Source: a candidate division CPR2 bacterium GW2011_GWC2_39_10 (GTDB lineage Bacteria > Patescibacteriota > CPR2). From it: a DNA stretch of 64,000 nt. Numbering within the stretch: the stretch's first letter is position 1; each line of letters opens with the position of its first letter. Of this stretch, positions 3,965-26,866 are shown piece after piece. Location: NCBI GenBank assembly GCA_000993275.1, contig LBVV01000006.1, positions 24 to 64,023 on the forward strand, read 5' to 3'. Made by a program: the position numbers and the translations under genes. The notes under the pieces are model-generated. The model had not been told where the DNA came from, ran no database searches, and worked only from the letters and a program-made list of their open reading frames with translations.

Positions 3965-4055
3965 AATAATTTTTCTCCAAAATTAATTAAACTAACAGAT
4001 TAGCTATTTCTATTCTAGCATCTAGTACATTATCAATAAACCACTAAAAATTTTA

Positions 4056-4676: not shown

Positions 4677-5103
4677 AAAATTATTATAGCAAATTTTTCA
4701 GGACTTATGCACTTCAATATTATTCGACTTTTGCGAGACATGTCCGCCTTAGAGACGGGGGACATTAAAAACCTCCCCTAAACCCTCCCAAACAGGCTGT
4801 CTAAAAAGCTTAAAATCAACTAGATTTTGTCATTCCAGCCTGTCTCGTTTGGCACTCACCAAGGCGGGCGAAAGCGGGAATCCAGTCCTTAGGTCATTTT
4901 GGGGCATTCTGGATTCCGGGTCAAGCCTGCCTCGCTGACAGCCTGCAAAGGGAGAGGAATAATAGAGAAGTTTCTTGCTTATTGTTTATTGTTTATTGAA
5001 CCTATGCCAATTTTAAATGTTTCTTAATCATATTTATCTCAAGCTGTTGATTTTTAAGACCTTCTTCCAATCTTTTAATAGCCACATTGGTAAATATCCG
5101 TTC

Positions 5104-5451: not shown

Positions 5452-5709
5452 TTTCGACTGAATGACATTTAATTTTTGGTGTGTCGTTTCTGCCTGTCTC
5501 GTTTGGTACTCGCCTGTCTAGGCGCCAAGGCGGGCGTAGGCAGGAATCCGAAATGAATGGATTCCGGATCAAGTCCGGAATGACAAGCAAAAGAAGGGCA
5601 GGGATGAGAATGTCCTCTTTACCTTACTATTGTCATCTTCTTTTTCATTTAAAATTGAGATTTTCTTGTTTCTTGCTTATTGCTTTTTGTTTATTGTTTA
5701 TTTCTTCTG

Positions 5710-7899: not shown

Positions 7900-8611
7900 T
7901 TGATGCCTTTTTCTTTACAACAAATATCCAATTTTGTTTGGCTTGTATTTCTTCACATCGCTCTATAATAAAACCAACGCTTTCCAACATATCCTTTATT
8001 TCATTAAAATCTTGGTACTTTATTCTTCCCTTATTATTATAATTATCTAATTTCCTTTGAACCCTTAGTACTTTTATTAAACTTTTAATTGAAATAATAT
8101 CTTTAAAAATCTCTTTTACAATTTCTACAAAAGTTTTGCTTTTATATTGTTCCTTAAAAAATTCTTTCGTGCTTCCTTTAGGTTTAGGATTTATCAATAT
8201 CAGATAGCCATTTTCATTTAAGAGAAAAAATAAATTATTTATTAATTTTTCTGGCTTCGCAAGAAAGAAAATTACATTTATGGCAACAATGCAATCAAAT
8301 GACTCTTCCTTATATGGCAATGTATCATTCAAATCCCATATATTAAAAGTGATATTGGGCTTATCGCCTATTTTCACCTTCGCTATACCAAGCATTTTTT
8401 TGGAAAAATCAAGCGCCTCTATTTGTCCTTGATATGATTTTTTAATTAAAAATTCTTCCAGTAATCCACTTCCACATCCTATGTCCAATATCGTTTTTGG
8501 TTTTAAATCTGAAATTATCTTCGCAACATAGTCAAATTTATCATGATGTGCTTGTGATACTTTGGAGATATTGTCATAATCTTTTGCAATATCATCCCAT
8601 AAATTTTTCAA
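7892..8611 (-). CDS. Class I SAM-dependent methyltransferase
   Basis: Motif I 'ILDIGCGSGLL'; Rossmann MTase layout. Confidence 0.65.
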   Translation of the reverse strand: MKNLWDDIAKDYDNISKVSQAHHDKFDYVAKIISDLKPKTILDIGCGSGLLEEFLIKKSYQGQIEALDFSKKMLGIAKVKIGDKPNITFNIWDLNDTLPYKEESFDCIVAINVIFFLAKPEKLINNLFFLLNENGYLILINPKPKGSTKEFFKEQYKSKTFVEIVKEIFKDIISIKSLIKVLRVQRKLDNYNNKGRIKYQDFNEIKDMLESVGFIIERCEEIQAKQNWIFVVKKKASSE

Positions 8612-8612: not shown

Positions 8613-9410
8613 TCATTCTCCTATTTCGAATTTTTTTATAAACATCTTTTCAAGATCAACAATAAAAATCGCTGGCGCTTCAGCAAGTGGCGCAACTCCT
8701 CTTATAGCAACCTTTATGATCTCTTCAACTAAATAACCAGATCCAATGCTTGGTGGTGTTGCGTGTGATGCGATATGTAATTGATTTGTGCCAATAATAT
8801 TATCTATAATTTCTGGAGTTACTCCTTTCGGTAATACTGGAAAAAAGAAAGAAATAGCCTTTCTCAAATCAGGAGTGCCATTTATCATTATTGCGTCTAG
8901 GATACTCTTACCAGAAGGATTAAAGCTGGTAAAACTTAGTATTTCTTTAGCAGCTTGGCTGGTAAAAACCCACAAATTCCTTTTTCTTGCTTCTAAATGT
9001 AAAATAATTTCGTTCTTTAATTCAAAAAAATCAATCGCATCTATTACAACGTCTGTCTTGTCTAAAAATTCATCAACATTATTTTCATCAATAAATTCAT
9101 TCCAAAATCTAACTTTTAGATAAGGATTAATCCTCTTGAGCTCTTCACTTATTGCTTCTGCCTTGTATTTACCTATCGTGTCAATATAAGCTCCAAATTG
9201 TCTGTTTAAATTCGAAGCTTCAAATTTGTCTGCATCCGCCAATCTTATCTCTCCCACTCCTAATCTAGCTAGAATATAAGCCACCGGCCCCCCGAGTCCA
9301 CCAGCACCGGCTATTGCCACTTTCAAATTTTTTATTTTCTCCTGCTCTTCGGGAGTAAAAATACCTATATTCCTCTGGAATATTTCATCATAAGAATACT
9401 CACTTGACAT
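8613..9410 (-). CDS. ThiF/MoeB/HesA-family E1-like adenylyltransferase (possibly TcdA-like tRNA ct6A dehydratase)
   Basis: Nucleotide-binding 'VAIAGAGGLGGPVAYILARLGVGEIRLADAD...NLNRQ' and 'VVIDAID' motifs typical of ThiF-family enzymes. Confidence 0.7.
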   Translation of the reverse strand: MSSEYSYDEIFQRNIGIFTPEEQEKIKNLKVAIAGAGGLGGPVAYILARLGVGEIRLADADKFEASNLNRQFGAYIDTIGKYKAEAISEELKRINPYLKVRFWNEFIDENNVDEFLDKTDVVIDAIDFFELKNEIILHLEARKRNLWVFTSQAAKEILSFTSFNPSGKSILDAIMINGTPDLRKAISFFFPVLPKGVTPEIIDNIIGTNQLHIASHATPPSIGSGYLVEEIIKVAIRGVAPLAEAPAIFIVDLEKMFIKKFEIGE

Positions 9411-9560
9411 AAAAATCTCCTTTACCTAAATATATCAGAATATCCTAAGTAAGCAAAACCTTTTCCCCTTTTCCCCCATCCTGTCCCCCCATCCAAACCC
9501 TAACCTAACAAAATGATGAAATAGCCGCGACCGCGTGTATTTCATCATTCTAACAACATA

Positions 9561-9600
9561 GCGTGCACCCGGTGTGTGCCAAACAGACACATCTGGAATA
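9561..9600 (+). repeat. REP-like element copy (degenerate): palindromic core CACCCGGTGTG + arm AGACACATCTGGAATA
   Basis: Matches the consensus ACACACCCGGTGTGTACTAGGTAGACACATCGGGAATA seen at 7 other sites; followed by a 43-bp duplicate of the thiF-like 5' end. Confidence 0.6.
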
Positions 9601-9688
9601 TTTCATCATAAGAATACTCACTTGACATAAAAACAGAATATTAACCATAAGCAAATATCACTATCTATGCGGCTATGATCATCTGTAG

Positions 9689-10201
9689 TTAAGCATCTCT
9701 TGCTAAACCGATTTTAATAATAGAATCATGAAAAATTGTTTCCAGTGCCATAATACTTTCTTCAACTGTGGCATTTTTTAGTATTCTTAACGGTATTTCT
9801 AATGCATCAGCCATTTCCCGTGCTCGTTTATAAAGAATTTCTTGATGTAATATTATTTCTTCAATATTCTTGGCTCGATCTAATCTTGTTAGATCGTTAA
9901 ATCTTCTAAACAAAATCTCCTCTGGTTCTACATGCAACATCAAGAGGCCACAGGTATTTTCTTTTCTATATTTTTCAATTCTTATTGCATCCATTAAATT
10001 AAATTCTAAATGCTCATCAATCAATATTAAGGAATCATTCTTAGATAAAAAATGCCACCAATATTTATCTGCCTTATTGCCATATTCTTTTAATAAAGCG
10101 CTGTAAGAAAGATGCAATACTCCTTGGTTCCTAGAAATTGTCTCTTTTATCAGGGTGGTTTTACCCGAACCGGAAATTCCCAACACTTTAAGTGTTTTCA
10201 T
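9689..10201 (-). CDS. P-loop NTPase, small kinase-like ATP-binding protein
   Basis: Walker A 'GISGSGKTTL' near the N-terminus; size and layout similar to nucleoside/nucleotide kinases. Confidence 0.5.
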   Translation of the reverse strand: MKTLKVLGISGSGKTTLIKETISRNQGVLHLSYSALLKEYGNKADKYWWHFLSKNDSLILIDEHLEFNLMDAIRIEKYRKENTCGLLMLHVEPEEILFRRFNDLTRLDRAKNIEEIILHQEILYKRAREMADALEIPLRILKNATVEESIMALETIFHDSIIKIGLARDA

Positions 10202-10241
10202 AAAAACGCTCCTTCAAAAACCGCTAGTGATGATTTAAAAA

Positions 10242-11333
10242 TTACGACTCTTGCTTATAAGAACATTTCGCTTTCTCTTCCCAAATTGATTCTAGCGCTT
10301 TGATTAGTATAGCCATAGATTTAATATTTTTTATTGTTACTCTTACGCAATTACTTTTAAGATGAAAATATTCTCCCGAAATAACCAAAATGCCTTTTTG
10401 CTTTAATGCTATTGCTAAATTAATTTGAAATTTAGCTTCAATAATTATCATACTACAACAAGTATCAGTCGCCATAAAAGAAATTGGTAAGTTATCCTTT
10501 AAGTAATTAATTGAAATTTTAAGTTCTTTTCTCTTTTTTTCAACTAAATTGACTTTCGCAAGTGCGACCTCTGCCAAATAAGCAGATATCACGGAAACTT
10601 CAAATGGTGAAATAATATTTTTTATTTTTTTTAATAAACATGGATTTCGCACAACAGCATATCCGATTCTCGCCCCAGCCAACCCATAAATTTTAGAAAA
10701 GGTTCTAATTTCGATGATATTTTTATTTTTATATGTAAAAACATCTTGGCTTTCGCAGTATTCTATTAGCGAATTATCTATAATAATTATGGCTTTTGTT
10801 AATGCCGCAATTTTCTCAATTTCCTTAATATCTAAAAGGTGCCCAGTCGGGTTATTAGGATTTGCTAAATATATTATTTTTGCATTCTTCCCATTAGCTT
10901 CTTTAATGATTTTATCAGTATCAATTTCATAGGGAAAATGGTTAAATTTAATGGAGTATATATTAGCCCTCGCAAGTTTAGCATAGAACGAATATCGGCC
11001 AAAGGTAGGCACCGGAACAATTACGCTATCTCCGGGACTAATAAATGCTTGGGAACAATTCTGTAATGCCTTGTCGGAACCAGCAGTAAGAATTATATTT
11101 TGCGGAAAAGTTTTGTGCTTTAATGAGAGTAATTTATGTAAAATTGTTTCTTGTGTGTAATAATACTCATTTATGTCATCCAAAGGAAGCTTCATGGGGT
11201 CAAGTAAAGACACATCTGATTCCCCGCTACTTAAATCAAGATACGAATTCTCTCTTATTCTAGAAGTGGCATACTCTTTATACTTTAGGCCTAACATAAC
11301 ATGCATTTTATAATTAAAACCCTTGACCGTCAA
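10242..11333 (-). CDS. PLP-dependent class I/II aminotransferase (histidinol-phosphate aminotransferase-like)
   Basis: 'NPNNPTG' and PLP-lysine context 'IRTFSKIYGLAGARIGY'. Confidence 0.7.
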   Translation of the reverse strand: MTVKGFNYKMHVMLGLKYKEYATSRIRENSYLDLSSGESDVSLLDPMKLPLDDINEYYYTQETILHKLLSLKHKTFPQNIILTAGSDKALQNCSQAFISPGDSVIVPVPTFGRYSFYAKLARANIYSIKFNHFPYEIDTDKIIKEANGKNAKIIYLANPNNPTGHLLDIKEIEKIAALTKAIIIIDNSLIEYCESQDVFTYKNKNIIEIRTFSKIYGLAGARIGYAVVRNPCLLKKIKNIISPFEVSVISAYLAEVALAKVNLVEKKRKELKISINYLKDNLPISFMATDTCCSMIIIEAKFQINLAIALKQKGILVISGEYFHLKSNCVRVTIKNIKSMAILIKALESIWEEKAKCSYKQES

Positions 11334-11397
11334 GGATCTTTATGCGATAATAGCCAAGATCTGTTTTACGCGTAGTTTAAAAAGGGTGGTGAAAAAA

Positions 11398-11868
11398 ATG
11401 AAAGCTGCTATAGACAAATGTACTTTATTAGAAAAAGCCCAAAAAGCCTTAAATGAAAAAGCGGAGCGATCAGATGAGATAGCTCAAGGATTTAGCAAAG
11501 ATGCCACAAAATGGCCATCAGCCAAAGAATCTCATAGCGATACTAATCGCTCTCAATTACAGCATATGTCGCTAGCTGCAAAAAAAATGGCTTTAGATAT
11601 ACAGCTTAACAGTGTAGGCGCAATTGACAACATGGTGAAAAACTTGCATGTTCCACATGAAATTATTGGTTTTGGCTCATTAGTCAGTCTTCAATATGAA
11701 GATGACGAGGAAATTATGATAGCATTTATAGTTCCTGGGAAAAACAGTACTGAAATTGAACGAACAAGCAGCACTTGCTAAAGCTATATTAGGAAAAAAA
11801 TGTGGTGATAAAGCTGTTATCAAGACAGGTCTTAGGGAATTAACCGTAAATATATTGGCGGTTGAATA
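11398..11868 (+). CDS. greA: GreA/GreB-family transcript cleavage factor, interrupted by an apparent +1 frameshift near 11757-11762
   Basis: C-terminal FKBP-like domain 'IGFGSLVSLQYEDDEEIMIAFIVPG' continues in the +1 frame as 'EQAALAKAILGKKCGDKAVIKTGLRELTVNILAVE' (GreA C-terminus signature); the ORF frame stops at 11781. Confidence 0.6.
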
Positions 11869-11898
11869 GCTTACCAGCGAGGGGTTTTAAAAACCCCT
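11868..11898 (+). terminator. Rho-independent terminator after greA
   Basis: GAGGGGTTTTTAAAAACCCCTC hairpin followed by TTTTTTT. Confidence 0.6.
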
Positions 11899-11938
11899 CT
11901 TTTTTTAAAAAAATAATAAACTAACAAATTATAGAAAA

Positions 11939-12982
11939 ATGATTAATAAGTTTACGATACCCGCCCATTGGGATAAAAAAATAATAAAGGAAATCTTGGA
12001 TCATAGATCGGGGAAAGATCTAAAAAATGAGATCGACGAGATTTATGGAAGCCTACCGAAACCAATACTTGGACATGGCAGGACACCAAATTCTGTTGTC
12101 CAAATAACACAAAAGGAAGCATTGGATTTTAAAAAATATATATCCAAAAGAGGGATCGAATTTGCGTATTTATTAAATGGGCCAGCTAAAAAAAATATAA
12201 TCCATTCTAAAAAGTCAGATGAATATTTGGATTGGATTATGAATGAATTCAGAGCCGATTCATTGACAATTACATCCATAGAACTAATGAAAAGAGTAAG
12301 ACAATTAAATAATTCTATAAAAATTAATGTATCAACAATTGCGGGAATCAAAAATGTTACCGATCTAGTGAAATATTTGGAATTTGGAATATCAAAAATC
12401 ATACCGCACCACGATACCAATCGCAATTTTTCTGATTTGGAAATACTTCAAAAATTTTGCACAAAAGAAAAAATTGAAATTGAGTTATTGGCAACAGAGA
12501 GTTGCCTTAGAGAATGCCCCAACCGATGGAGACATTATTCTGCAATTGCCAATTTTAAAGATGATGCTTCTTTTCATATTAACTGTAATACTAAAAAAAT
12601 AAATCATCCATCAAATCTTCTAAAAGCGAACTTTATACGCCCGGAAGACCTCAAAATCTATAATAATATAGGAATTAATCGTTTTAAAATAACTGGTAGA
12701 TCTAAACCAAAAGAATGGATAACGGAAGTAATACAGGCCTATTTTGTGGAAGAATATAGTGGAAACTTAGTGAGACTACTTGGGATAAGTGTCCCTAAGT
12801 TTCCTATAATTTGGAATGAAATTTTTATATCTAATAAGTCCTTGAAGGGATTCCTAAAAAATTTTCCCGATAATTCTCAACAAGAAGAACGTTACTGCCT
12901 TAATTGGCTTGAACAATTATCAAAAAATGGTGATTTTAAGTTATCGGAAGAGATTATAAATGAATATACTAAAACAGAATAA
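11939..12982 (+). CDS. Peptidase U32-family-like protein (RlhA/TrhP/UbiU-type Fe-S hydroxylase family?); otherwise hypothetical
   Basis: Overall U32 layout including the 'IEIELLATESCLRECPNRWRHYS' region, which resembles the conserved E-x-F-x-HGA-x-C-x-x-SG-x-C segment; low certainty. Confidence 0.35.
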   Translation: MINKFTIPAHWDKKIIKEILDHRSGKDLKNEIDEIYGSLPKPILGHGRTPNSVVQITQKEALDFKKYISKRGIEFAYLLNGPAKKNIIHSKKSDEYLDWIMNEFRADSLTITSIELMKRVRQLNNSIKINVSTIAGIKNVTDLVKYLEFGISKIIPHHDTNRNFSDLEILQKFCTKEKIEIELLATESCLRECPNRWRHYSAIANFKDDASFHINCNTKKINHPSNLLKANFIRPEDLKIYNNIGINRFKITGRSKPKEWITEVIQAYFVEEYSGNLVRLLGISVPKFPIIWNEIFISNKSLKGFLKNFPDNSQQEERYCLNWLEQLSKNGDFKLSEEIINEYTKTE

Positions 12983-14060
12983 AGCACAATTTAAAAAAGA
13001 TTTTGAGCCTTTTAAAATCGGTACAATTTTTAATCCCTTAAAAAGAAGCTTTAATTGTAAGCCATTGCACAAAGAAGTTTTAATCAAATATCCGTTACGC
13101 CTAAATGCAATGGCCTTAGATCCGTCAAAAATAACTGAAAATAATAATCTTGTTTTTACCCCAGGAGAAATAGTTTTTAGCATCGCAAAATTTACAATAG
13201 TTAAACTAAAGTTAACATCAAAAGGAATAAGGATAAATTCAAAAATTGGTAGAGAGTCCATAATAAAACATTCTGCTTTAATAATGAAAAAAACCATGGG
13301 GTATAAAGGAGGGTTTTATATTGAAGCAGATTCAGAATTAGATATTGCACACATAGGTATCGGCTCAAGCGGTTCTCTTATGTGCGCTGTAATATCGGCA
13401 ATAAATGAGTTATTCGGCAAACCAATTTCGAAAAAAGAAATTATTCCATTTATTGCGCAAAATTATGGAGAAGATATTGATGGCTTGAATGATTGGCTAA
13501 ATCCTGTTCAATGCATAGGCGGCTCAGCATGTTCTGGCAATTACGATGCAGGAGTAATGGTAATAGCTGGACAGAGCCAGGTAATCTCATCCTTGAAAAT
13601 TGATCCAAAATATTCAATTATTATTGGCTTACCAAAAGATTACAAAACTTTAGATTCAAAAAAAGCTTTAGAGTTAGAGAAGAAAAATTTTCCATTATTT
13701 TTAAAAACAGGTCGAACTTATTCTAGAGAAATTGCCTACCGAATGATTCACGAAGTATTACCGTCATTATCAGATAATCGATTAGACATAATTGGTAATC
13801 TCATTTATGATTACCGTTACAAAATGGGAAGTATTAAAAACTGCTCTTTTTGTTACTCAAATTTAGAAAACTTGGCAGAAAATCTTTCGGCTATAAAGAA
13901 AATGGGTCTAGCGGAAATATTAAGCCTTTCTTCAGTTGGACCATCTTTTTTTGCGATTACGAAGAATCAGGCCGCCTGCAAGAGAATCTTTGAAGAAAAT
14001 GGATTAAAAGTTTGGACAACCAAACCGTATAATCGAAAATATAAGGCAAGTTATGAATAA
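12960..14060 (+). CDS. GHMP-kinase superfamily protein, beta-RFAP-synthase-like
   Basis: GHMP motif II 'IGIGSSGSLMCAVISAINELFG'; length ~366 aa; overlaps the upstream and downstream genes (translational coupling). Confidence 0.5.
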   Translation: MNILKQNKAQFKKDFEPFKIGTIFNPLKRSFNCKPLHKEVLIKYPLRLNAMALDPSKITENNNLVFTPGEIVFSIAKFTIVKLKLTSKGIRINSKIGRESIIKHSALIMKKTMGYKGGFYIEADSELDIAHIGIGSSGSLMCAVISAINELFGKPISKKEIIPFIAQNYGEDIDGLNDWLNPVQCIGGSACSGNYDAGVMVIAGQSQVISSLKIDPKYSIIIGLPKDYKTLDSKKALELEKKNFPLFLKTGRTYSREIAYRMIHEVLPSLSDNRLDIIGNLIYDYRYKMGSIKNCSFCYSNLENLAENLSAIKKMGLAEILSLSSVGPSFFAITKNQAACKRIFEENGLKVWTTKPYNRKYKASYE

Positions 14061-14700
14061 TTATTGTTTCTGGGATGACATAGAAGTCATTAAATCTTTT
14101 GGAGAAGACACGCCCTCTGAAGAAGTAGTTGAATTCCTAAAAAATTTAAAAACGGTAAATAATACTAAAATTTTAGATTTAGGATTTGGCGGCGGACGCC
14201 ATACCGAGATAATTGCCAAAATGGGTTTTGACACATATGGCTGTGACCCTTGCGATGGAATGATTAACTACACCAAAAATCGGCTGAAGGAAAAGGGCTT
14301 GAAAGCAAAAATAATTAAAGCTAGAATGCAAAATTTACCTTATGAAGAGTCATTTTTTGATGCAGTTATAGCAAATGGAGTTTTTCATCAGGCGATTTCA
14401 TTAAACGATTTTATTAAATCAATTAAAGAAACTACCAGGGTATTAAAAAAAAATAGTTTTCTTTATGTAAATGTTTTCTTTTTAAATGAACACATATACA
14501 ATACATACTACTCGAAAGAAAAAGAAGTATATACTTTTTTTACAGAAAAAGGCTTAATGACAACCTTTTTGCCAAAAGATAAATTTCTAGAAATAATGAG
14601 AAATAATAATTTGGAATTAGAAAAAATTGTTAGTGAAAAAACCACCAAGGTAAGCACTGGTTACAGACCGACATTAAAAGCAATTTTTAAAAAAACTTAG
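14053..14700 (+). CDS. Class I SAM-dependent methyltransferase
   Basis: Motif I 'ILDLGFGGGRHT'; 'VIANGVFHQ' post-I region. Confidence 0.65.
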   Translation: MNNYCFWDDIEVIKSFGEDTPSEEVVEFLKNLKTVNNTKILDLGFGGGRHTEIIAKMGFDTYGCDPCDGMINYTKNRLKEKGLKAKIIKARMQNLPYEESFFDAVIANGVFHQAISLNDFIKSIKETTRVLKKNSFLYVNVFFLNEHIYNTYYSKEKEVYTFFTEKGLMTTFLPKDKFLEIMRNNNLELEKIVSEKTTKVSTGYRPTLKAIFKKT

Positions 14701-15278
14701 GAATTTTTCAATCTTTTCCCGTACCAAGAAGCAAAATCCTTAATAGCGTTTCCCCAAAATTGAGCCTCATAAAAAGGATCCTCCTCTCTTAACTCGCTCA
14801 ATGTTTTAATTTCCCCGTCTGGTATAAAAAATAAATCATGCCACCTGCCTCTTTTACCATGCTGCTTTAATGCAATTGTTCCATTGGAACCGCCAGAAAA
14901 AACAATTGGATCTTTTCCCGGCTCACAAAAAGCAAAGGTATGTTCAAGTCTGGCTTTCCGATTTTTTTCATTTCTTAAAAGTTTTAAAAATTTTTCGGCA
15001 CCAATTTGTTTATCAAAATAAGCGTTATAGGGACCCGGAAGACCACCCAAGCAATCGATATATAAACCCGTATCAGATTTTAATGTGTTGACACCTAGTT
15101 TATCAGCTGCATACTTTGCACTAAAAGTAACAACATCAACACAAGACTTTGCTTGAATTTCGATAATTTCAAAATCAGGATTAATAATATCAATATTAAA
15201 ACCATAATGCTCTACAAAAAATCGGTTTGCTTCTTCAACTTTATGAGGATTTGTTGTTAAATAAACTAATTTTTCCAT
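14697..15278 (-). CDS. Non-canonical purine NTP pyrophosphatase (Ham1/RdgB/ITPase family)
   Basis: 'TTNPHKVEE', 'SDTGLYIDCLGGLPGPYNAYF', 'WHDLFFIPDGEIKTLSEL' align to RdgB signature regions. Confidence 0.75.
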   Translation of the reverse strand: MEKLVYLTTNPHKVEEANRFFVEHYGFNIDIINPDFEIIEIQAKSCVDVVTFSAKYAADKLGVNTLKSDTGLYIDCLGGLPGPYNAYFDKQIGAEKFLKLLRNEKNRKARLEHTFAFCEPGKDPIVFSGGSNGTIALKQHGKRGRWHDLFFIPDGEIKTLSELREEDPFYEAQFWGNAIKDFASWYGKRLKNS

Positions 15279-15373
15279 AGAGAAATCCTACCACTTCTTC
15301 AGATGATAATCAAGACTCTGTTTGGGCTGAGTACATCGGTAACAACTTTTGTTGTTTAGTTAATGGGCGAAAT

Positions 15374-15418
15374 GCACACACCCTGTGTGTACTAGGTAGA
15401 CACATCGGGAATATTTCA
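15374..15418 (+). repeat. REP-like element copy (ACACACCCTGTGTGTACTAGGTAGACACATCGGGAATA)
   Basis: Near-identical to copies at 18928 and 33559; followed at 15421-15462 by a fragment resembling thiF codons ~22-33. Confidence 0.7.
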
Positions 15419-15467
15419 TTTACACGATTGCTATAGCCACTTTCAAATTTTTTCCTTTTACTGCACC

Positions 15468-16028
15468 CTAACCATTGAGTAGCTTATTAAGATTAAATTT
15501 ATTCCAACTCTGTCTCAAGAAATTATCAAAATTATCGCTTTTATTGTATATAGCCGTAAATATTTCGGTTAATGTTTTGTTTTCTAGTTTTATTTCTTTC
15601 CAGCGATCATAAATATTGAATTCACTTTTGGCTATGTTCTTTATTCTGGGATTATTTCCTATAATAGCTACCAAAATTTCACTTAATGACCAAGCTGGAT
15701 CAGGAGACTCAAAGTTAGAATAATTATGTTTGGGAAAAAGATTTTGCCATTTTTTAAAATAAAGAAAGTGAATCATTTCATGGGTTGCCCAATTTAAAAG
15801 GATTGAATTGCTAAGTTTGTAAGGCAGAATCATTGATTTCGATTTTACAAATCGTGGAGCAATCGGACATGCCCCAATATAAATATTAATTTTATCATTT
15901 GAATCCCACCTCTCATCAACAACATTTTCAATTGCTATTGCTATCGCCTCAAGTTTTTTAAGATTTTCCTGCTTAAAATCTGTGAACACGATTATAAATT
16001 TGTACGATGAGCATAAGGTTTTAATCAA
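15468..16028 (-). CDS. Hypothetical protein with HExxH motif (putative zinc metallopeptidase)
   Basis: 'ATHEMIHFLYF' HEXXH; no other family signature recognised. Confidence 0.3.
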   Translation of the reverse strand: MIKTLCSSYKFIIVFTDFKQENLKKLEAIAIAIENVVDERWDSNDKINIYIGACPIAPRFVKSKSMILPYKLSNSILLNWATHEMIHFLYFKKWQNLFPKHNYSNFESPDPAWSLSEILVAIIGNNPRIKNIAKSEFNIYDRWKEIKLENKTLTEIFTAIYNKSDNFDNFLRQSWNKFNLNKLLNG

Positions 16029-16962
16029 GAATAGGGAGCAAAAGCTGGCTTTAGATTATGATAATCCATCATGGAAAGAAAAAGTCATCAATCTTTTTGA
16101 AAAAACAGATTTTGTCCAGGAATTTCACAAGAATAATGTGATATCGGCGATGAAAAATGTAAGAAGCGATTGGGGGTTCATACGAGAATCAGGCTGTGGA
16201 GCTCGATATAAAAAATGGATCATTGATCCCATGTTTGATAGCGAATTATTCACCGTTTATAACATATTTATTAAGCTTAAAAATAAATATCCTGATAAAT
16301 TAAATAATCCCGTGAATTTTTTTGCTGATCTGTTTAAGTCGTTGGAAACTGGAGATTCAAACAAAAATCATATCATAAAAGAATTTGTGAGTTGGTTGCC
16401 ATGCGATGTTTTCGTTTGTGAAGAACATTTAAAAAATTGGATCGTAAAAAGATTATATTCGGAAAAACTTCTTTTGAGTGACGAATACATAACGAGGAAG
16501 TATTTTATTACAGGTATGGGTCTGTTGTTCGGCAAGAGAATGTCGGCTTCTCGTGGGCATGCAATATTGGCGAAAGACTTGATAAACTCTTATGGACCTC
16601 TTAGGACTAGACTTATTATGCTATTGGCTGGAGGACATCCGTCAAAAATTTACCAATATGACACAAATTTGCCGCAACAAGCCGACAAGCTGTTAAAAAA
16701 AGTAACCAATTACACAACTTATCTGACTACCTTAACCGTTGACGAAAAGATCGAATCTGATGAAAATGATCTTCTTGGCCTGGAAATATTGGACAAAAAA
16801 ATAGAGAACTTGCTGAAGAGCGGCTATTATAGGCAGGTAATTTTAGAGTTGATTACCATTGTTCCAAAAAACTTTCGCAATCCAGACAGTAGGTCAGCCA
16901 TTAAGCTGTTGAATATTTACAAAAAATATTTTAATATATTGTTGCCTAGTTTAATATTGTAG
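15982..16962 (+). CDS. Hypothetical protein with a class-I aminoacyl-tRNA-synthetase-like KMSKS motif but no HIGH motif
   Basis: 'GKRMSASRGHAILAKDLI' resembles a KMSKS loop; no HIGH motif upstream; overlaps the convergent 15468-16028 gene by 47 nt. Confidence 0.3.
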   Translation: MNTIINLYDEHKVLIKNREQKLALDYDNPSWKEKVINLFEKTDFVQEFHKNNVISAMKNVRSDWGFIRESGCGARYKKWIIDPMFDSELFTVYNIFIKLKNKYPDKLNNPVNFFADLFKSLETGDSNKNHIIKEFVSWLPCDVFVCEEHLKNWIVKRLYSEKLLLSDEYITRKYFITGMGLLFGKRMSASRGHAILAKDLINSYGPLRTRLIMLLAGGHPSKIYQYDTNLPQQADKLLKKVTNYTTYLTTLTVDEKIESDENDLLGLEILDKKIENLLKSGYYRQVILELITIVPKNFRNPDSRSAIKLLNIYKKYFNILLPSLIL

Positions 16963-16994
16963 ATTTTGAGCATTAACAAAAGGTGTAAATTAAT

Positions 16995-17600
16995 ATGAAA
17001 AAAAGAAATAGTAAATACGCATTGATTAGCGTTTATGATAAAAGGGGCGTGATTGAGCTTGCTGGTCAGTTAAAAAAATCAGGATATGGAATAATAGCCA
17101 CAGAAGGAACAGGGCGGGAGTTGATAAAGAAAAGAATCCCATTTATTCCATGCGGAGAAATATCCAAGAATCCCGATTGTTTTGATGGCCATATGAAAAC
17201 CATGAGTTTTTTTGTTGAATCGGGAATGCTTTTTGACAGGTCAAATGATACGCATGTCAAAGAAGCGAAAAAATTTGGCGTTAAACAGATAGATATTCTA
17301 ATCTGCAATTTCTTCCCAGTGAAGGAGGTGGTTAAACAATTAAAAAAAAGCGATATAACAGATATCGTGAGAAGTTTTGATTTTGGAGGACCGACAATGG
17401 TTAGGGTGGCAGCACAAAATTTCAAAAATGTAATAGTTGTTGTCGATCACAAAGATTACAAGAATGTATGTAATGCTATAATTTCAAAAAATATTACAGA
17501 CAAACTCAAATACGATTTGGCTCTCAAGGCTTTTAAATGTATTTCAGACTATGACAATCAGATTGTTAAGTATTTAGGCAAAAATATAAAGTCTCTTTAA
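16995..17600 (+). CDS. Stand-alone IMP cyclohydrolase-like domain (PurH N-terminal MGS-like domain), catalytic motif diverged
   Basis: 'ALISVYDKRGV', 'IIATEGTGRELI', 'DGHMKTMSF' (PurH DGRVKTLHP), 'IDILICNFFP', 'FDFGGPTMVRVAAQN' (PurH IDIGGPTMLRAAAKN); no AICAR-transformylase domain. Confidence 0.65.
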   Translation: MKKRNSKYALISVYDKRGVIELAGQLKKSGYGIIATEGTGRELIKKRIPFIPCGEISKNPDCFDGHMKTMSFFVESGMLFDRSNDTHVKEAKKFGVKQIDILICNFFPVKEVVKQLKKSDITDIVRSFDFGGPTMVRVAAQNFKNVIVVVDHKDYKNVCNAIISKNITDKLKYDLALKAFKCISDYDNQIVKYLGKNIKSL

Positions 17601-17610
17601 ATAAAAAATA

Positions 17611-18096
17611 ATGAAAACATTAATATTATTAGAAGCTAAAAAAATCGCACTGGATATGTTTGAAAAAGTGGAACCGGTTGAGCATGGAGATTTTTTACGA
17701 ATCCATTCTGAAAAAGTCGGCAAAGTTGCTGTGATGATTGCGCGAATAATGCAACTAGACGATGAAATATTCGAAATCGCAGGATGGATTCACGACATAG
17801 GATATTCGGAAAATTTCGAAAATCATGCCGATTTTTCGATTTCTATTTTGGAAAGAATGGGGTATGAATTGAGCGACGTACTAAGTGACTGTGTTTCAAA
17901 TCATGGCAATGGGATGGATCCCAAAACGATTGAGGGAAAAATTTTTCAAGTGGCGGACAAGTTGAGTATTTTTGATATAGAAATAATTGGAAGCATGCTT
18001 AAAAATGGTAGTTTCCCATTAGAAGATGGTGATATCGATTTTTTGAAAATGATGTCTGAAAATGCATTAAAGTTAGTCAAAAATTTTTCAAAATGA
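17611..18096 (+). CDS. HD-domain phosphohydrolase
   Basis: 'HSEKV...' His and 'AGWIHDIGY' HD motif. Confidence 0.6.
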   Translation: MKTLILLEAKKIALDMFEKVEPVEHGDFLRIHSEKVGKVAVMIARIMQLDDEIFEIAGWIHDIGYSENFENHADFSISILERMGYELSDVLSDCVSNHGNGMDPKTIEGKIFQVADKLSIFDIEIIGSMLKNGSFPLEDGDIDFLKMMSENALKLVKNFSK

Positions 18097-18128
18097 AAGT
18101 GTGAATCACATAAATTTCCAATGATAAT

Positions 18129-18225
18129 TTATTGGTTTTGGCTCATTAGTCAGTCTTCAATATGAAGATGACGAGGAAATTATGATAGCATTTATAGTTC
18201 CTGGGAAAAACAGTACTGAAATTGA
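18129..18225 (+). repeat. ~97-bp duplicate of an internal greA segment (identical to 11665-11761)
   Basis: Direct comparison: TTATTGGTTTTGGCTCATTAGTCAGTCTTCAATATGAAGATGACGAGGAAATTATGATAGCATTTATAGTTCCTGGGAAAAACAGTACTGAAATTGAAC is shared; it diverges exactly where greA frameshifts. Confidence 0.8.
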
Positions 18226-18226
18226 A

Positions 18227-18248
18227 CCGGTGTGTACTGGGTAGATTA
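18227..18248 (+). repeat. Partial REP-like element (CGGTGTGTACTGGGTAGATTAA)
   Basis: Matches the right half of the REP consensus; joins the greA fragment to the dnaK fragment. Confidence 0.55.
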
Positions 18249-18249
18249 A

Positions 18250-18403
18250 TCGCCCTTACCCCAATAGAGCTATGCCCTTCTCTATTTAAAAAAAGCAGCG
18301 TTGGAATTAATGTGTCCGAATTTCCAATTCTTAAAAGACGATTTTTCGTTCCGTCATAAAAACAAACGACAGTATTAGATGTTCCGAAATCGATTCCGTA
18401 CAT
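18250..18403 (-). pseudogene. dnaK: Truncated Hsp70/DnaK N-terminal fragment (~50 codons)
   Basis: 'MYGIDFGTSNTVVCFYDGTKNRLLRIGNSDTLIPTLLFLNREGHSSIGVRA' matches the DnaK N-terminus (GIDLGTTNS...VIEN..G.RTTPS); the ORF runs into the REP fragment and ends. Confidence 0.55.
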
Positions 18404-18501
18404 AATCCAACCTATATATAACTTAAATATATTAGCAAAAAGTGTTAATATAAAAAAGCCATTTTTAAAAATAATATACTTTAAATTAAAAGGAGATAAC
18501 T

Positions 18502-18921
18502 ATGCAAGTAGGCGTAGCAACAAAAGCGGTAATATTTTATAACGACGATGTTCTTATTATAAATAAAAGTGATAAAGACGAAATCAACCCCAAAACAATG
18601 GATCTGCCTGGAGGAAGATTAGGATTTGGAGAACAAGTCATTGACGGTCTTGTAAGAGAAATTGAAGAAGAAACCAGTTTAAAGGAGGTTGAGGTCATTG
18701 GCCCAGCCAATACATGGAGTATTGTTAAGGGTGATCTTAATCTCGTTGGAATTACATTTGCCGTTAAGATAAAGAGGAAAAATGATGTTAATCTAAGCTT
18801 TGAGCACGAATCCTTTATCTGGTTGCCAATAGACAAAATTCTTAATGATAGCAATATGCCTGTATGGATAAAAGAAGAGGTATCGGCATCGGTAAAGTTA
18901 AAAAAAGCTTACAGTAAGTAA
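18502..18921 (+). CDS. NUDIX hydrolase
   Basis: Nudix box 'GGRLGFGEQVIDGLVREIEEETSL'. Confidence 0.75.
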   Translation: MQVGVATKAVIFYNDDVLIINKSDKDEINPKTMDLPGGRLGFGEQVIDGLVREIEEETSLKEVEVIGPANTWSIVKGDLNLVGITFAVKIKRKNDVNLSFEHESFIWLPIDKILNDSNMPVWIKEEVSASVKLKKAYSK

Positions 18922-18927
18922 AAGCGA

Positions 18928-18970
18928 AATGCACACACCCGGTGTGTACTAGGTAGACACATCGGGAATA
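18928..18970 (+). repeat. REP-like element copy (GCACACACCCGGTGTGTACTAGGTAGACACATCGGGAATA)
   Basis: Consensus copy directly after the NUDIX stop. Confidence 0.7.
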
Positions 18971-19003
18971 CTCTGCATGCACTTGGACGTAATGACGGCG
19001 ACT

Positions 19004-19378
19004 TTATTTCACTATCATCTTCTTTAATCTTAACGAAAATAGATAGGAGCCAAAAATAATCCAGCCAAAAAATAAAAACCAAAACCATAAAGGGATATTG
19101 CTGCCAAATAATATCACGTATATGTAAGGCGCAGCCCAAGCGATTCTATTAATTACTAATGCCCGAGAAAATTTTTTTTCAAAGAAAATATCGGAAATTT
19201 TACCTTTTTTTTCAACATAATATCTTTTTTTGAATCGAACTATTTCTGTGCCAATTGCTAGCCACCCCCAATAGTAAAAAGGAACAGAAAGAATCATTAA
19301 AAAAATAAATACCTTGGGATTAACATGGTAAGTATTAACTGCTAAGTCATTATAATTTTTTATTATATTTAAGTTCAT
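19004..19378 (-). CDS. Hypothetical small membrane protein
   Basis: ORF with 3 hydrophobic helices; no motif. Confidence 0.3.
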   Translation of the reverse strand: MNLNIIKNYNDLAVNTYHVNPKVFIFLMILSVPFYYWGWLAIGTEIVRFKKRYYVEKKGKISDIFFEKKFSRALVINRIAWAAPYIYVILFGSNIPLWFWFLFFGWIIFGSYLFSLRLKKMIVK

Positions 19379-20184
19379 CCCCTAATCACTTTTCTAAAAT
19401 TAACTATGGCTCTGGTGATAACCTCTTGGCCAGGCTTAGAATATAGATACTTTTGGGCAAAATCGTTTAGTTCCTTTTTTTTATGTAAGGGCTGTTCTTT
19501 ATATAAAAGATGCGGCTTTTCGTCATAAAAACCTTTCATAATGCAGCCTTCCCGTAATAAATAATTATATTTCTCTCTGCTCGCATGTAAAAATTCTTTT
19601 ATTGTCAGCCATGTTTCGTCATCGGCAACAGCTATACTTTTAGTTTTTTTATCAACCAGATATGGGTTTGGGTAAACAAAATCACAAAAACGCATTATTG
19701 CGCCCAAAGTTCTGACATTAGGGCTGATAAAAACAAATTCGGTTAGCATTTTACCGGCGAAAAAACGCTTAATCAAAATTCTTCTCGTGACCTTAAGAAG
19801 CATTTTTTTCATCAAATCCAAGTCTCTGTATCTCGGATCCACAACTGTTAAACCGAATGAATAAACTTCTCTTTTTCGAATATTATATTTTTTAATCGGC
19901 GCAATTCCGATAATTTTGTAGTCTAAATCCCTAAGTATTAGAAGCAGATGAGCACCCAGCACATTTTTTTCTATATAATCAAGGCCGAAATCACCCCAGC
20001 CTTTCGTAACCAAAATAGATATTTCCTCTAAAACATCTTGCTTTATTTTATTCGGAATACTTTTTGACGGTTCCGTTATTATTTCGGTCGGCAATAGGAT
20101 CGTTTTTTTCCCTATACCAAAAGCGGCCTCATCATCTTCTATTTTGATCCACGCTTGTTTACTTTTCCAAGAAAATCGCTGCAT
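19375..20184 (-). CDS. Hypothetical protein
   Basis: ORF overlapping the downstream gene by 4 nt; no recognisable motif. Confidence 0.35.
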   Translation of the reverse strand: MQRFSWKSKQAWIKIEDDEAAFGIGKKTILLPTEIITEPSKSIPNKIKQDVLEEISILVTKGWGDFGLDYIEKNVLGAHLLLILRDLDYKIIGIAPIKKYNIRKREVYSFGLTVVDPRYRDLDLMKKMLLKVTRRILIKRFFAGKMLTEFVFISPNVRTLGAIMRFCDFVYPNPYLVDKKTKSIAVADDETWLTIKEFLHASREKYNYLLREGCIMKGFYDEKPHLLYKEQPLHKKKELNDFAQKYLYSKPGQEVITRAIVNFRKVIRG

Positions 20185-26124: not shown

Positions 26125-26272
26125 GCTCGACTAATTAAGGTTTTTGTAGTATAATTAATCGGTCAAAATATGAAATATGGTGCAAACAAGTAGTCATTTT
26201 CATTGGTTTCAACAAAATTTCTGCGATGGTATCAACTGTTTATTGTTTATTGCTAATTGTTTATTAATTTAT

Positions 26273-26348
26273 GCGCCCGTAGCTCAGGGGATAGAGCGGC
26301 TGCCTTCTAAGCAGTAGGTCGGAGGTTCGAATCCTCCCGGGCGTACCA
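26273..26348 (+). tRNA. tRNA-Arg (anticodon TCT)
   Basis: Acceptor GCGCCCG/CGGGCGT, anticodon loop CTTCTAA, GGTTCGAATCC T-loop, CCA encoded. Confidence 0.85.
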
Positions 26349-26689: not shown

Positions 26690-26791
26690 AGAATAATAAA
26701 CAAGGAACAAAGAACAATTAACAATCAGACGAGAAGGTAAAATAAAAACTAAAATTGTTTATTGCTATTTGTTTATTGTTTGTTAACATCC

Positions 26792-26866
<75 letters not shown>

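Follow-up and report, generated by a model that had tools for sequence, protein, structure and literature searches.

A conserved operon around a thiF-family gene is split in this bacterium by a strain-variable block of 9.6 kb (9411-19003), at whose joints copies of a REP sit next to copied or truncated pieces of genes. The window, i.e. the whole stretch of DNA analysed, is 64,000 nt long, and about 100 kb of sequence of this genome was covered in all. As the repeat is a true REP with its own RAYT-type gene, as copied pieces lie at its junctions and as strains differ at these same places, the data are best read as REP-linked recombination or co-movement of flanking DNA. The preliminary description had proposed REP-mediated recombination or transduction of flanking DNA; this is partly borne out, by REPs lying exactly at the copied or truncated pieces and by the strain polymorphism, but not as regards a role of the RAYT as joiner.

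The REP family and its RAYT-type gene

We found seven full and one partial REP copies in the window, making up approximately 0.6% of it. The core 12-mer gave 12 matches, against 0.06 expected for 64 kb, and every full copy was preceded by T(T)AT(T)CC. The hairpin carries GTAG in its loop, not 5' of the palindrome. Most copies are singlets and half are found at gene-stub junctions. The features are as follows.

33605-34270, minus strand: RAYT-type Y1 (IS200-like) HUH transposase gene, 221 aa (Pfam Y1_Tnp, E=4e-8)
33553-33599, plus strand: REP on the downstream side of the RAYT gene, forming a 42-nt inverted repeat with 34289-34330 (98% complementary)
34284-34326, minus strand: REP on the upstream side of the RAYT gene, inverted relative to the 33553 copy
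27026-27068, minus strand: intergenic REP, 63 nt from a duplicated tRNA-Gly 3' end
28796-28838, minus strand: intergenic REP, extended into a 29-nt palindrome
18924-18970, plus strand: REP of the subfamily ending in GCATTTCGC, bordering the 9.6-kb block on its upstream side (DNA fold of the hairpin, z = -3.2)
15367-15413, plus strand: REP of the 18924-copy subfamily, heading the second segment of the block
9554-9600, plus strand: degenerate REP (66% identity to the reference copy), joined to thiF stub A2 at TATTCC/AGATGTG

The RAYT-type gene is the only one of its kind in the window and lies between inverted REPs; the repeat is thus a true REP of a REPtron. The label given to it from the letters alone was therefore right, the cognate gene being located within the window itself between 42-nt inverted copies. 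The top NCBIfam match of the protein was REP_Tyr_transpos, at 39.9 bits under a cut-off of 80. The HUH motif (H87-F-H89) and Y147 (in SRYIHLNPV) were invariant across eight homologues, and in other CPR lineages homologues sharing 59% identity had related REPs on their flanks, with a co-varied core. The four REPs outside the 9-19 kb region (27026, 28796, 33553 and 34284) had no protein-gene fragment joined to them. The four within it all point one way, and the degenerate copy at 9554-9600 folded no better than shuffled sequences.

A three-segment block upstream of thiF

In relatives the operon is unbroken and runs from a 262/269-aa gene through a 124-aa gene, thiF and a methyltransferase to a 7TM kinase, with 0-14 nt between the 124-aa gene and the thiF start (contigs L155/L156 and L157). 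In the window the same interval measures 9,593 nt.

19004-20184, minus strand: 269-aa and 124-aa genes, with 44% (E=1e-68) and 32% (E=1e-16) identity to the genes abutting thiF in L155
8613-9410, minus strand: intact thiF-family gene, 265 aa (Pfam ThiF, E=2e-39)
5710-8611, minus strand: methyltransferase and 7TM histidine kinase; this downstream part of the operon is conserved (gene tables)
9416-9553, minus strand: leader serving thiF, read from the sequence as a 12-bp hairpin (9512-9549), a G-rich tract, a promoter-like region and an AAGGAG SD
9592-9633, minus strand: thiF stub A2, 5 nt of leader and codons 1-12, an exact copy of 9374-9415
15414-15462, minus strand: thiF stub with the ATGAAATATTCC motif, 10 nt and codons ~22-34 (23/24 match to 9310-9333)

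These identities support the view that the 269-aa and 124-aa genes of the window are orthologous to the relatives' pair. Followed in the direction in which thiF is coded, the block consists of three consecutive segments, each starting with a REP of one subfamily (18970 to 18924, 15413 to 15367 and 9600 to 9554) and each ending in AAATATTCC, i.e. thiF codons 10-12. The first of these REPs lies 33 nt past the stop of the 124-aa gene. On this strand AAATATTCC occurs six times in 64 kb, three of these sites being the native thiF codons and the two REP junctions. The final segment provides a working thiF with promoter, SD and codons 1-12, while the earlier 5' ends persist as stubs, each fused to the next REP. 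Segment genes are of housekeeping type (an aminotransferase, an ITPase and the only greA seen), which argues against a dedicated mobile element.

The duplicate of the thiF start noted earlier is a real exact repeat, of 42 nt (9374-9415 and 9592-9633), but its second coordinate had been off by 3 nt; it overlaps the REP end. Compared with the third unit of L145, a contig of a 98%-identical strain, the leader upstream of stub A2 has lost 21 nt, SD included. Similarly, the thiF copy reported after REP 15367 was confirmed for codons 22-34 (15430-15453 against 9310-9333, 23 of 24 nt), whereas GGAATATTTCAT is not thiF; we rejected it as a separate copy, since it belongs to the REP subfamily's own flank. 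A candidate thiF relic beside REP 18970 was not significant, its score being reached by 325 of 2000 shuffles. These cases had been treated as separate events, yet they form one family of units, each a thiF 5' end plus REP, in the same orientation upstream of thiF.

At the site orthologous to 15414-15462, L144 and L145 carry promoter, SD and codons 1-34 followed by the REP; in the window the promoter and start of this unit are gone. The related strain has three or four units of leader, thiF codons 1-12 or 1-34 and REP, all in the thiF direction and spaced 1-5 kb, and the hairpin, G-tract and promoter layout is found ahead of each L145 unit as well. Leader types and junction types occur in varying combinations from unit to unit, and the content between units varies among 98%-identical strains. 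A radical-SAM gene is intact in L144, while in L145 the REP 3' end is fused to its last ~100 nt. Contig L167 matches the window at 100% identity on either side but lacks exactly the 218-bp REP unit; the simplest account is that recombination between the 42-nt repeats deleted it, not that the target is empty. Stub junctions without a REP were found as well, at the window's truncation at codon 22, at unit 0 of L148 and in L158.

The greA copy and the Hsp70 stub

The strongest self-match of the window lies inside the block and is a copied greA segment.

11398-11869, plus strand: greA-family gene, from which segment 11663-11761 was copied
18129-18227, plus strand: copy of this internal segment, 99 nt exact here and 101 nt in other assemblies
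18226-18252, plus strand: decayed REP of the 18924-copy subfamily, 20 nt shorter in this window only
18248-18403, minus strand: Hsp70-family N-terminal stub of ~53 codons, which retains its own upstream region and is truncated by the REP (weak HscA/chaperone matches)

The repeat had been given as 97 bp; it is exact, but 99 nt long, with coordinates corrected by 2 nt. The decayed REP joins the copy (101 nt in full) to the Hsp70 stub. Both exact duplications in the 64 kb, of greA and of the thiF start, stop within a few bases of a REP. The edges of the greA patch share merely short, imperfect similarity with their surroundings, and the TATTCC motif is absent there and at the Hsp70 junction. Distant homologues of the stub are Hsp70 proteins, with homology stopping near residue 53. 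As a search of 5.8 billion proteins revealed no near-identical gene of full length, what had been called a duplicated 5' end of dnaK is a relic of the Hsp70 family, truncated to 53 codons, and not a demonstrated duplicate.

Two deletions at the right-hand border of the 99-nt repeat are private to the window. Directly past the repeat, after 11762, 29 nt are missing from greA, causing a frameshift; three other assemblies (L001-L003) have the gene intact (166 aa), a fourth contig has it intact in the 3' part that it covers, and the repaired product matches the entire GreA_GreB C-terminal domain. The partial REP described at 18227-18248 is likewise specific to this window, as eight other assemblies read GCGAAATGCACACACCCGGTGTGTACTGGGTAGA followed by TTAATCG and contain 20 extra nt, TCGAGCGAAATGCACACACC, that complete its left half. 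The NCBI assembly has a separate 62-nt deletion at the left edge of the same repeat, and one scaffold has an N-gap at it. The partial REP and the greA frameshift are probably assembly artefacts at repeat borders.

The duplications themselves are not. All junctions were found again in at least eight independent assemblies of Rifle groundwater samples; the regions upstream of thiF and around 15367 and 18924 were identical in every assembly spanning them, and the junction of greA fragment, REP and Hsp70 stub was intact in eight. Those eight used k=127/141, exceeding every repeat involved, so that chimeric assembly, the first doubt raised about the duplications, does not account for them.

Origin of the joints and related systems

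We infer, with about even confidence, that the joints are scars of REP ends joined at look-alike sites, RAYT-catalysed or hairpin-driven, followed by later recombination. The REP 5' end (TATTCC/CGATGTG) and the thiF site (TATTCC/AGA) are identical at 8 of 9 bases, and thiF codons 11-15 form a small palindrome, TATTCC-AGA-GGAATA. The REP 5' end would have been joined to this site, in the loop of the palindrome. The likeliest route would be single-strand cleavage and strand transfer of the RAYT type, in which a REP, together with the downstream DNA as far as the look-alike site, would be excised like an IS200/IS605 element, with the target copy acting as right end, and re-inserted as one unit. 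Template switching at a stalled hairpin may be an alternative route. The resulting direct repeats of 40-250 nt would then be reshuffled, truncated and deleted via ordinary recombination.

Microhomology of 8-9 nt and a hairpin could give the same junctions without the RAYT, and passive scarring of a decaying, recombination-prone stretch is possible, if on the whole unlikely. Slippage during replication, microhomology joining or RecA exchange between thiF 5' repeats would suffice, with REPs settling in non-essential intergenic DNA or their hairpins stalling forks. The stub junctions without a REP, the poor similarity at the greA edges, the decay of the two stub-adjoining REPs (9554 and 18226), the gene conversion-like shuffling of leaders and junctions and the L167 deletion, exactly as expected between 42-nt direct repeats, are all consistent with this. 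Against it, both exact duplications end near an element that occupies so little of the window, the outer edge and both internal borders of the block are formed by REPs of a single subfamily, all oriented alike, the thiF joint falls at a site matching the REP end, and the radical-SAM breakpoint in L145 lies exactly at the REP 3' end.

Tandem integrative elements are an improbable explanation. The thiF 5' end would be the attachment site for integrase-driven islands with the REP as island end, each island bringing a replacement 5' end and leaving the displaced one as an attL-like stub. The stacked, co-oriented stubs, the uninterrupted operon of relatives and the differing inter-unit content of 98%-identical strains would fit, as would the full promoter and SD in each unit, by which thiF would stay expressed. 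However, no integrase or recombinase was detected in or near 9.4-19 kb with Pfam and NCBIfam, where the ORFs gave mostly ordinary metabolic matches (two had no Pfam match); the cargo includes greA and further core-type genes, one island would be just 218 bp, at least two crossover points (codons 12 and 34) were used, some joints lack a REP, and 2.9 million viral contigs contained neither the REP nor the thiF start.

Retention of the units for a role as small transcripts is very doubtful. Examples would be thiF-leader decoys ended by the REP hairpin, or a greA antisense RNA that starts at the Hsp70-stub promoter and reads across the REP into the 101-nt greA copy. Units do keep a promoter-like region, SD and an open frame of 14 or 36 codons ending just before the REP, and the greA copy is antisense, 100% identical over 101 nt and downstream of the stub promoter; but recent origin explains this identity equally, stub A2 has no SD, the unit at 15414-15462 has neither promoter nor start, and an Rfam search matched no family. 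That the assembler created chimeras at short repeats can be dismissed almost entirely: the deletions and the N-gap indicate that assemblers did stumble at the 99-nt repeat, but the greA-fragment/REP/Hsp70 and thiF stub/REP joints and REP 18924 were identical in 8-10 contigs from different samples and assemblers (MEGAHIT k127/k141, JGI, NCBI), and an orthologous unit is present in a different strain.

The REP-linked reading has precedents, and REP-mediated rearrangement, which the preliminary description had called not well described, is not undescribed: join-points at REPs (PMC11708052) and REPIN clusters (PMC3116915) are known. In Salmonella, tandem duplications had REPs as their join-points (Shyamala et al. 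1990, as cited in PMC11708052), and tandem REPIN clusters of P. fluorescens SBW25 repeat their own flanking sequence (PMC3116915, Fig. S7). REP and adjoining unique DNA are duplicated together there too, with REPs marking the joints; but their joints are REP-by-REP and their units short and strictly tandem, whereas in our case the partner of the REP end is a look-alike site within the 5' end of a gene, units lie 0.2-6 kb apart with unrelated genes between them, and the replacement 5' end repairs the gene each time. With the REPtrons of E. coli, Pseudomonas and Stenotrophomonas (REP/BIME or REPIN) our system shares the IS200-superfamily Y1 HUH gene (PMC8266576), the inverted hairpin-forming repeats of 40-50 nt bordering it, the scatter of the repeat in intergenic DNA and the co-variation of REP and protein between lineages. 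It differs in its host, a candidate-phyla (Howlettbacteria-like) bacterium, in a protein of ~220 aa below the NCBIfam RAYT cut-off, in the position of GTAG, which canonical REPs have 5' of the palindrome, and in copies that are mostly singlets, half of them at gene-stub junctions. Single-stranded REP DNA is a substrate of the E. coli enzyme TnpAREP, which cuts it on the 5' or the 3' side of the hairpin and rejoins it (PMC8266576).

The 'peel and paste' elements of the IS200/IS605 family (IS608, ISDra2) share a related Y1 enzyme and strand-specific hairpin ends; as outlined in PMC8266576, they insert directly 3' of a short target, which stays by the left end with no target duplication, and the bare target sequence is cleavable. 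The proposed route would be an IS608-like event, but the segments moved here carry no transposase gene, the right end is not a hairpin and the RAYT activity is putative.

Other parallels exist. IS91/ISCR elements and Helitrons have one defined hairpin end, carry variable flanking DNA and gather gene fragments beside that end; the likeness here is the one-ended capture of flanks, with gene fragments at the element end. They encode their own rolling-circle enzymes, of the Y2 or Rep/helicase kind, and are not known to be linked to REPs. Integrative elements that insert at gene ends and bring a replacement copy, such as islands at tRNA 3' ends and phage 21/e14 at icd, leave direct repeats bracketing the insert and an intact gene, and may form tandem arrays; our case differs in having no integrase, variable crossover points, ordinary chromosomal cargo and a unit of 218 bp.

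That REPs lie at the joints of this block speaks, circumstantially, for such repeats moving or rearranging the DNA next to them.

The interrupted thiF operon

We compared the locus with the nearest relatives of thiF (60-63% identity), in which the order is 262-aa gene, 124-aa gene, thiF, methyltransferase and 7TM histidine kinase, with 0-14 nt between the 124-aa gene and the thiF start. The same genes were found in the window: orthologues of the 262-aa gene (19375-20184; 44% identity, E=1e-68) and of the 124-aa gene (19004-19378; 32% identity, E=1e-16), and the two downstream operon genes (methyltransferase and 7TM histidine kinase, 5710-8611). As thiF starts at 9410, 9,593 nt (9411-19003) intervene in the operon, almost exactly the span in which the preliminary description had reported REPs (40-50-nt palindromic repeats) joined to duplicated pieces of thiF, greA and dnaK. 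GC content was uninformative (0.31-0.35 in the block vs 0.33-0.40 in the flanks). Between 63% and 100% protein identity to thiF we found no relative and no closer empty thiF site.

Organisation of the block, read on the thiF strand
Upstream end: 33 nt, then REP 18970 to 18924
Segment 1, genes: Nudix, Hsp70 stub-REP-greA piece, HD, MGS-like, LeuRS-like fragment, 186-aa gene
Segment 1, end: thiF codons 22-34 and ...ATGAAATATTCC
Segment 2, head: REP 15413 to 15367
Segment 2, genes: Ham1, methyltransferase, GHMP kinase, U32, greA, aminotransferase, AAA_17
Segment 2, end: leader and thiF codons 1-12, ...GAAATATTCC
Segment 3, head: REP 9600 to 9554
Segment 3: 138 nt with hairpin, G-rich tract, promoter-like region and AAGGAG SD; then intact thiF

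A REP heads each segment, and a shared 9-mer, which occurs only six times on the thiF strand in 64 kb, closes it; codon 12 of the intact thiF again ends ...GAAATATTCC. All four block REPs have the same orientation and three carry a common 3' extension (GCATTTCGC). Self-comparison of the window gave just two perfect long repeats, one of 99 nt inside the greA-family gene (11663-11761 = 18129-18227) and one of 42 nt at the thiF start (9374-9415 = 9592-9633, minus strand; 5 nt of leader and codons 1-12), together with a 23/24 match to thiF codons 22-34 (15430-15453 vs 9310-9333). Each of these adjoins a REP copy. The greA and thiF duplications that had been described are therefore real, their coordinates having been 2-3 nt off and otherwise correct. 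The direct repeats of the thiF start bracket the inserted DNA, and thiF itself is intact. The stretch of 33 nt that separates the 124-aa gene from REP 18970 is at most a possible relic of thiF codons 1-6, as the match was not significant (325 of 2000 shuffles).

Two ORFs of the block deserve mention in their own right. The 326-aa ORF at 15982-16962 (plus strand) resembles only residues about 440-700 of the ~940 of an archaeal-type leucyl-tRNA synthetase, and is a free-standing fragment or paralogue. The 186-aa ORF beside it carries an HExxH motif and was matched by no Pfam or NCBIfam family.

The REP family and its transposase gene

In the 64 kb (G+C 37%) we found seven full REP copies and one partial copy, every one between ORFs.

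REP copies in the window
9554, plus strand, full REP
15367, plus strand, full REP
18226, partial REP
18924, plus strand, full REP
27026, minus strand, full REP
28796, minus strand, full REP
33553, plus strand, full REP
34284, minus strand, full REP

The 12-nt REP core matched the window 12 times, with 0.06 matches expected. Folded as single-stranded DNA, intact copies form a 10-bp stem (CCCGGTGTGT / ACACATCGGG) with a 9-nt loop (z -3.1 to -3.2), and the two stub-adjacent copies are decayed; CACACA before the stem could pair alternatively with TGTGTG. A scan of the genome collection (596 Gb) with a 15-nt REP core returned chance matches alone, because the pattern is too short for that volume, and the full hairpin was present in none of the returned loci. 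An Rfam search of the window found five tRNAs and nothing else.

The one Y1 gene in the window (33605-34270, minus strand; hereafter RAYT) encodes a 221-aa protein that matches Pfam Y1_Tnp (IS200-like) at E=4e-8, above the gathering score. Its sole NCBIfam match was the REP-associated tyrosine transposase model NF047646 (39.9 bits, under the cut-off of 80), and a sequence search of the PDB gave no chain at E<=1, the solved E. coli TnpAREP included. H87-F-H89 (HUH) and Tyr147 are invariant in eight aligned sequences, the window protein and seven homologues of 53-97% identity. The gene is bordered by an inverted REP pair (33558-33599 / 34289-34330; 42 nt, 98% complementary). About 2,900 homologues were found, nearly all from candidate-phyla bacteria (Patescibacteria), the closest (97% identity) being named Howlettbacteria. 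Homologues at 58-59% identity share the neighbourhood HTH-RAYT-GTPase-MurJ (Shapirobacteria-type genomes), and those on three contigs from other genomes (L149, L152, L154) are flanked by repeats related to the REP of the window. The repeats flanking the 58-59% homologues keep the outer arms (ATCCCGA.GTGTC / GACACAT.GGGAT), with the central palindrome changed from CACACCCGGTGTG to CACACATCGGATGTG. The setting of the window's RAYT differs from that neighbourhood: several of the genes around it (28853-35000) encode proteins with the N-terminal methylation motif of type IV pilins, and a PilB-type ATPase is encoded at 46888-48828.

Judged by its sequence, the repeat is a genuine REP and has a RAYT of its own, in the REPtron arrangement described for Proteobacteria (PMC8266576). 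An autonomous IS200/IS605 insertion sequence was rejected: 64 kb hold a single Y1 gene, not several hairpin-ended gene copies, and the hairpin repeat occurs eight times without a Y1 gene. The layout appears to depart from the proteobacterial one in a single respect. GTAG, the usual tetranucleotide of REPs, lies immediately 5' of the palindrome there (PMC8266576), whereas here five of the eight copies have it within the loop, directly ahead of the 3' arm; on the opposite strand the central palindrome is preceded by GTAC.

The window contains further repeats besides the REP. The last 20 nt of tRNA-Gly (26847-26866) recur exactly at 26943-26962, 63 nt before REP 27026, and the last ~19 nt of tRNA-Arg(TCT) (AATCCTCCCGGGCGTACCA) about 100 nt downstream, near 26449-26468. 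These tRNA-end repeats look, from their sequence, like att scars of almost wholly deleted tRNA-targeting islands; no integrase was found near them. A second, unrelated palindromic family (GAATCC...GGATCCCGCATC...GCGGGAT) is intergenic, and tracts with a 7-nt period (TTGYTTA or its complement) occupy many intergenic regions.

Other repeats in the window
26792-26962 and 26273-26468: tRNA-end duplication regions
94-156, 4859-4935, 5525-5570, 32561-32610, 63042-63104, 63852-63914: second palindromic family (D4, D8, D15-D17)
4964-5004, 5662-5702, 26232-26272, 26755-26784, 42905-42955, 52719-52797, 59226-59294: TTGYTTA tracts
26691-26724, 52567-52683, 58828-58861, 59885-59918: complementary 7-nt-period tracts
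39357-39462, 39902-40007, 52611-52744, 42772-42824: other 100-135-nt intergenic repeats

The junctions in other assemblies and strains

The organism is from Rifle groundwater. Besides the window, the NCBI assembly GCA_000995565.1 and many independent assemblies contain the locus; the part of the genome examined was about 100 kb. The regions upstream of thiF and around 15367 and 18924 are base-identical in every assembly that spans them. The greA-fragment/REP/Hsp70 junction was found in eight contigs assembled at k=127 or 141, values that exceed the length of every repeat involved. The junctions are thus not chimeric, and a wholesale assembly artefact is effectively excluded as their origin.

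Assembly error does appear to have affected the edges of the greA repeat. In all eight other contigs the REP at the greA/Hsp70 junction, reported earlier as partial (18227-18248), is 20 nt longer (...GAAATTGAAC TCGA GCGAAATGCACACACC CGGTGTGTACTGGGTAGA|TTAATCG...); the loss, right after the shared 99-nt repeat, is private to the window's assembly. The window's greA lacks 29 nt directly 3' of the repeat and is frameshifted; three assemblies have an intact greA (166 aa), and a fourth contig is intact over the 3' part that it covers. In the NCBI assembly greA has lost 62 nt directly before the repeat and the GHMP-kinase gene is short by 59 codons; the greA repeat of one scaffold is interrupted by an N-gap.

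Sites of assembly discrepancies
Window 11762/11763: 29-nt deletion in greA
Window 18226/18227: 20-nt deletion in the REP
L004 (contig of another assembly) 3990-4512
L007 (contig of another assembly)

Because three different lesions border one 101-nt repeat in three assemblies, the 20-, 29- and 62-nt deletions are probably assembly errors, and neither the partial REP nor the greA frameshift should be read biologically. GAACGAAC in the window's greA, considered as a transposon footprint, was likewise discarded: by comparison with the other assemblies it is the scar of the window-specific 29-nt deletion.

The piece across this junction had been taken for a duplicate of the dnaK 5' end. Its ORF (18146-18403, minus strand) starts MYGIDFGTSN... 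and weakly matches HscA-type models. An exhaustive search gave distant relatives (E 1e-6 to 1e-3, at most 52% identity), several of them Hsp70-family by Pfam, and for the closest matches homology ends near residue 53. No full-length gene with this N-terminus was found among 5.8 billion proteins, where only the stub itself was recovered, and the 64-kb window has no DnaK. We therefore regard it as a truncated Hsp70 relic, not a demonstrated duplicate. The REP is joined to it without its first 13 nt, the break lying at GT|CTAC, right after the plus-strand GTAG.

When metagenome contigs were searched with the thiF protein, a related strain emerged (contigs L144 and L145) whose stretch from Ham1 to the U32 peptidase gene is 98% identical to window 15453-12582. 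At the orthologous position of REP 15367 this strain carries a G-rich tract, promoter, SD, thiF codons 1-34, GTCGTGTAAATAAAATATTCC and REP, so 15421-15462 of the window is the truncated remnant of a unit of this kind. Two further units in the same direction lie upstream, one joined at codon 12 like the copy of the thiF start in the window (stub A2, 9592-9633, minus strand), and in one more case thiF codons 1-26 run into other DNA with no REP at the joint. Leader alleles 'a' and 'b' occur in every combination with the codon 12 and codon 34 junctions, which indicates exchange between units. The radical-SAM gene is intact in L144; in L145 the REP 3' end (...GCATTTCGCCCAT) is fused to its last ~100 nt, and the upstream genes differ from those of L144. 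All thiF leader copies (window 9416-9553; L145 3900-4040 and 5090-5180) share an upstream layout that starts with a hairpin, followed by a G-rich tract (GGGGTTGGGGTGGTTTGGG-like; CCCTAACC-like on the other strand) and a promoter-like TTGCTT...N17...ATATTT; ACGATCGT palindromes are common in L145 spacers.

Variation was also found within the window's own population. Contig L167 (ERZ27254745 k141_2625222) is 100% identical to the flanks of window 9374-9633 and lacks exactly 218 bp, namely one 42-nt repeat, the REP and segment 3. Its thiF lacks an SD and lies 60 nt after the AAA_17 gene, and the leader of stub A2 lacks the 21 nt that hold the SD. A secondary deletion between the repeats is more likely than an ancestral empty site, because loss of the SD would be harmless only in a dead stub. 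Whichever way L167 arose, the 218-bp unit is unstable in the population. Its origin as a tandem duplication, by unequal exchange between the REP end and thiF, was rejected because a different leader allele lies upstream of stub A2 and there is no second REP-X copy. The contexts of the 124-aa gene and Ham1 yielded no more haplotypes. On contig L158 (1-34), thiF is identical to the window from 9343 downwards and follows 34 nt of other sequence; on L148 (137-270), the thiF leader and codons 1-26 are fused to unrelated DNA near the same point (...GGAGAAAATA). Together they could mark both flanks of another insertion, present in some cells at codon ~24-26, or else reflect chimerism at the end of a contig.

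Origin and meaning of the junctions

The block that splits the conserved operon has REPs of the RAYT system at its outer edge and at its internal borders; REPs also mark strain-level breakpoints and lie beside both perfect duplications. The thiF joint site (ATATTCC|AGA) equals the REP 5' end (TATTCC|CGA) at eight of nine positions, and lies in the loop of a small palindrome, TATTCC-AGA-GGAATA. We give about even chances to REP-end joining, either RAYT-catalysed or hairpin-driven, as the source of the junctions. Its main rival, for which we see a smaller but real chance, is passive: hairpin stalling, microhomology joining and RecA exchange. Some junctions have no REP, the cargo is housekeeping in nature (greA), and no motif is present at the greA and Hsp70 joints, all of which speak for the passive route.

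A RAYT-catalysed form of REP-end joining could run as follows. IS200/IS605-type Y1 enzymes cut single-stranded DNA beside a hairpin and at a bare target with the same guide, and the E. coli TnpAREP enzyme cleaves on the 5' or the 3' side of a REP and then rejoins the DNA (PMC8266576). RAYT would cut at the REP 5' end and at the next downstream look-alike site (TATTCC), so that one unit made up of REP, cargo, thiF leader and codons 1-12 would be released, whose circular joint would read ...AAATATTCC and then the start of the same REP. Pasted after TATTCC in thiF, the unit would give stub|REP-cargo-new 5' end-thiF, with the gene repaired. The anatomy is suggestive; each of these steps is proposed from sequence. 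In the strict version, which we hold to be rather unlikely, RAYT would mobilise a REP and the DNA downstream of it together as single-stranded DNA, cutting at the REP 5' end and at the next TATTCC mimic and pasting the unit after another such site.

An integrase-driven island at the thiF 5' end would fit the stacked stubs, all in the same direction, and the thiF-end direct repeats that bracket the insert and leave the gene intact. We consider it improbable, as Pfam and NCBIfam matches of the ORFs in 9.4-19 kb and the flanks gave no recombinase (Nudix, HD, MGS-like, LeuRS-like, Ham1, methyltransferase, GHMP kinase, U32, GreA, aminotransferase and AAA_17; one 186-aa ORF unmatched). Viral contig scans showed no extrachromosomal form either: they had zero matches for the REP and for the thiF start, and hence no sign of a phage-borne one. 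An integron was rejected, since no integrase was found and the thiF units each repeat promoter and gene start, which integron cassettes do not.

The view that REP-associated rearrangement is not well described is only partly right, because RAYT/REP systems are known, REPs are join-points of duplications (Shyamala et al. 1990, as cited in PMC11708052) and REPIN clusters that repeat their flanks have been reported (PMC3116915). Several features seen here were not found described in the literature: a REP end joined to a look-alike site inside a gene's 5' end; repeated events stacked on a single gene, with a new promoter and start supplied each time; REP units separated by kilobases of chromosomal cargo; and any such arrangement in a candidate-phyla bacterium, where a literature search yielded a single paper that mentions both CPR and REPs.

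How REPs disseminate is still to be elucidated (PMC8266576). The locus bears on this, and on the role of RAYT, in three ways: its REP-to-gene junctions are defined and fall at a mimic of the REP end, several events are nested at a single gene, and variants exist between strains and within the population, including presence or absence of the 218 bp. It is thus a testable handle on REP dissemination. It also documents the REPtron family as widespread in candidate-phyla bacteria. These organisms have small genomes and are usually considered repeat-poor. A conserved operon can evidently be split by several kilobases while its downstream gene gains a new promoter. If the joints are passive recombination scars only, this is an ordinary rearrangement hot spot. 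If RAYT does transduce flanking DNA, the stacked thiF stubs would document, in nature, the movement of chromosomal segments of 0.2 to 6 kb, and would be the first in-vivo footprint of REP spread and of RAYT action on host genomes.
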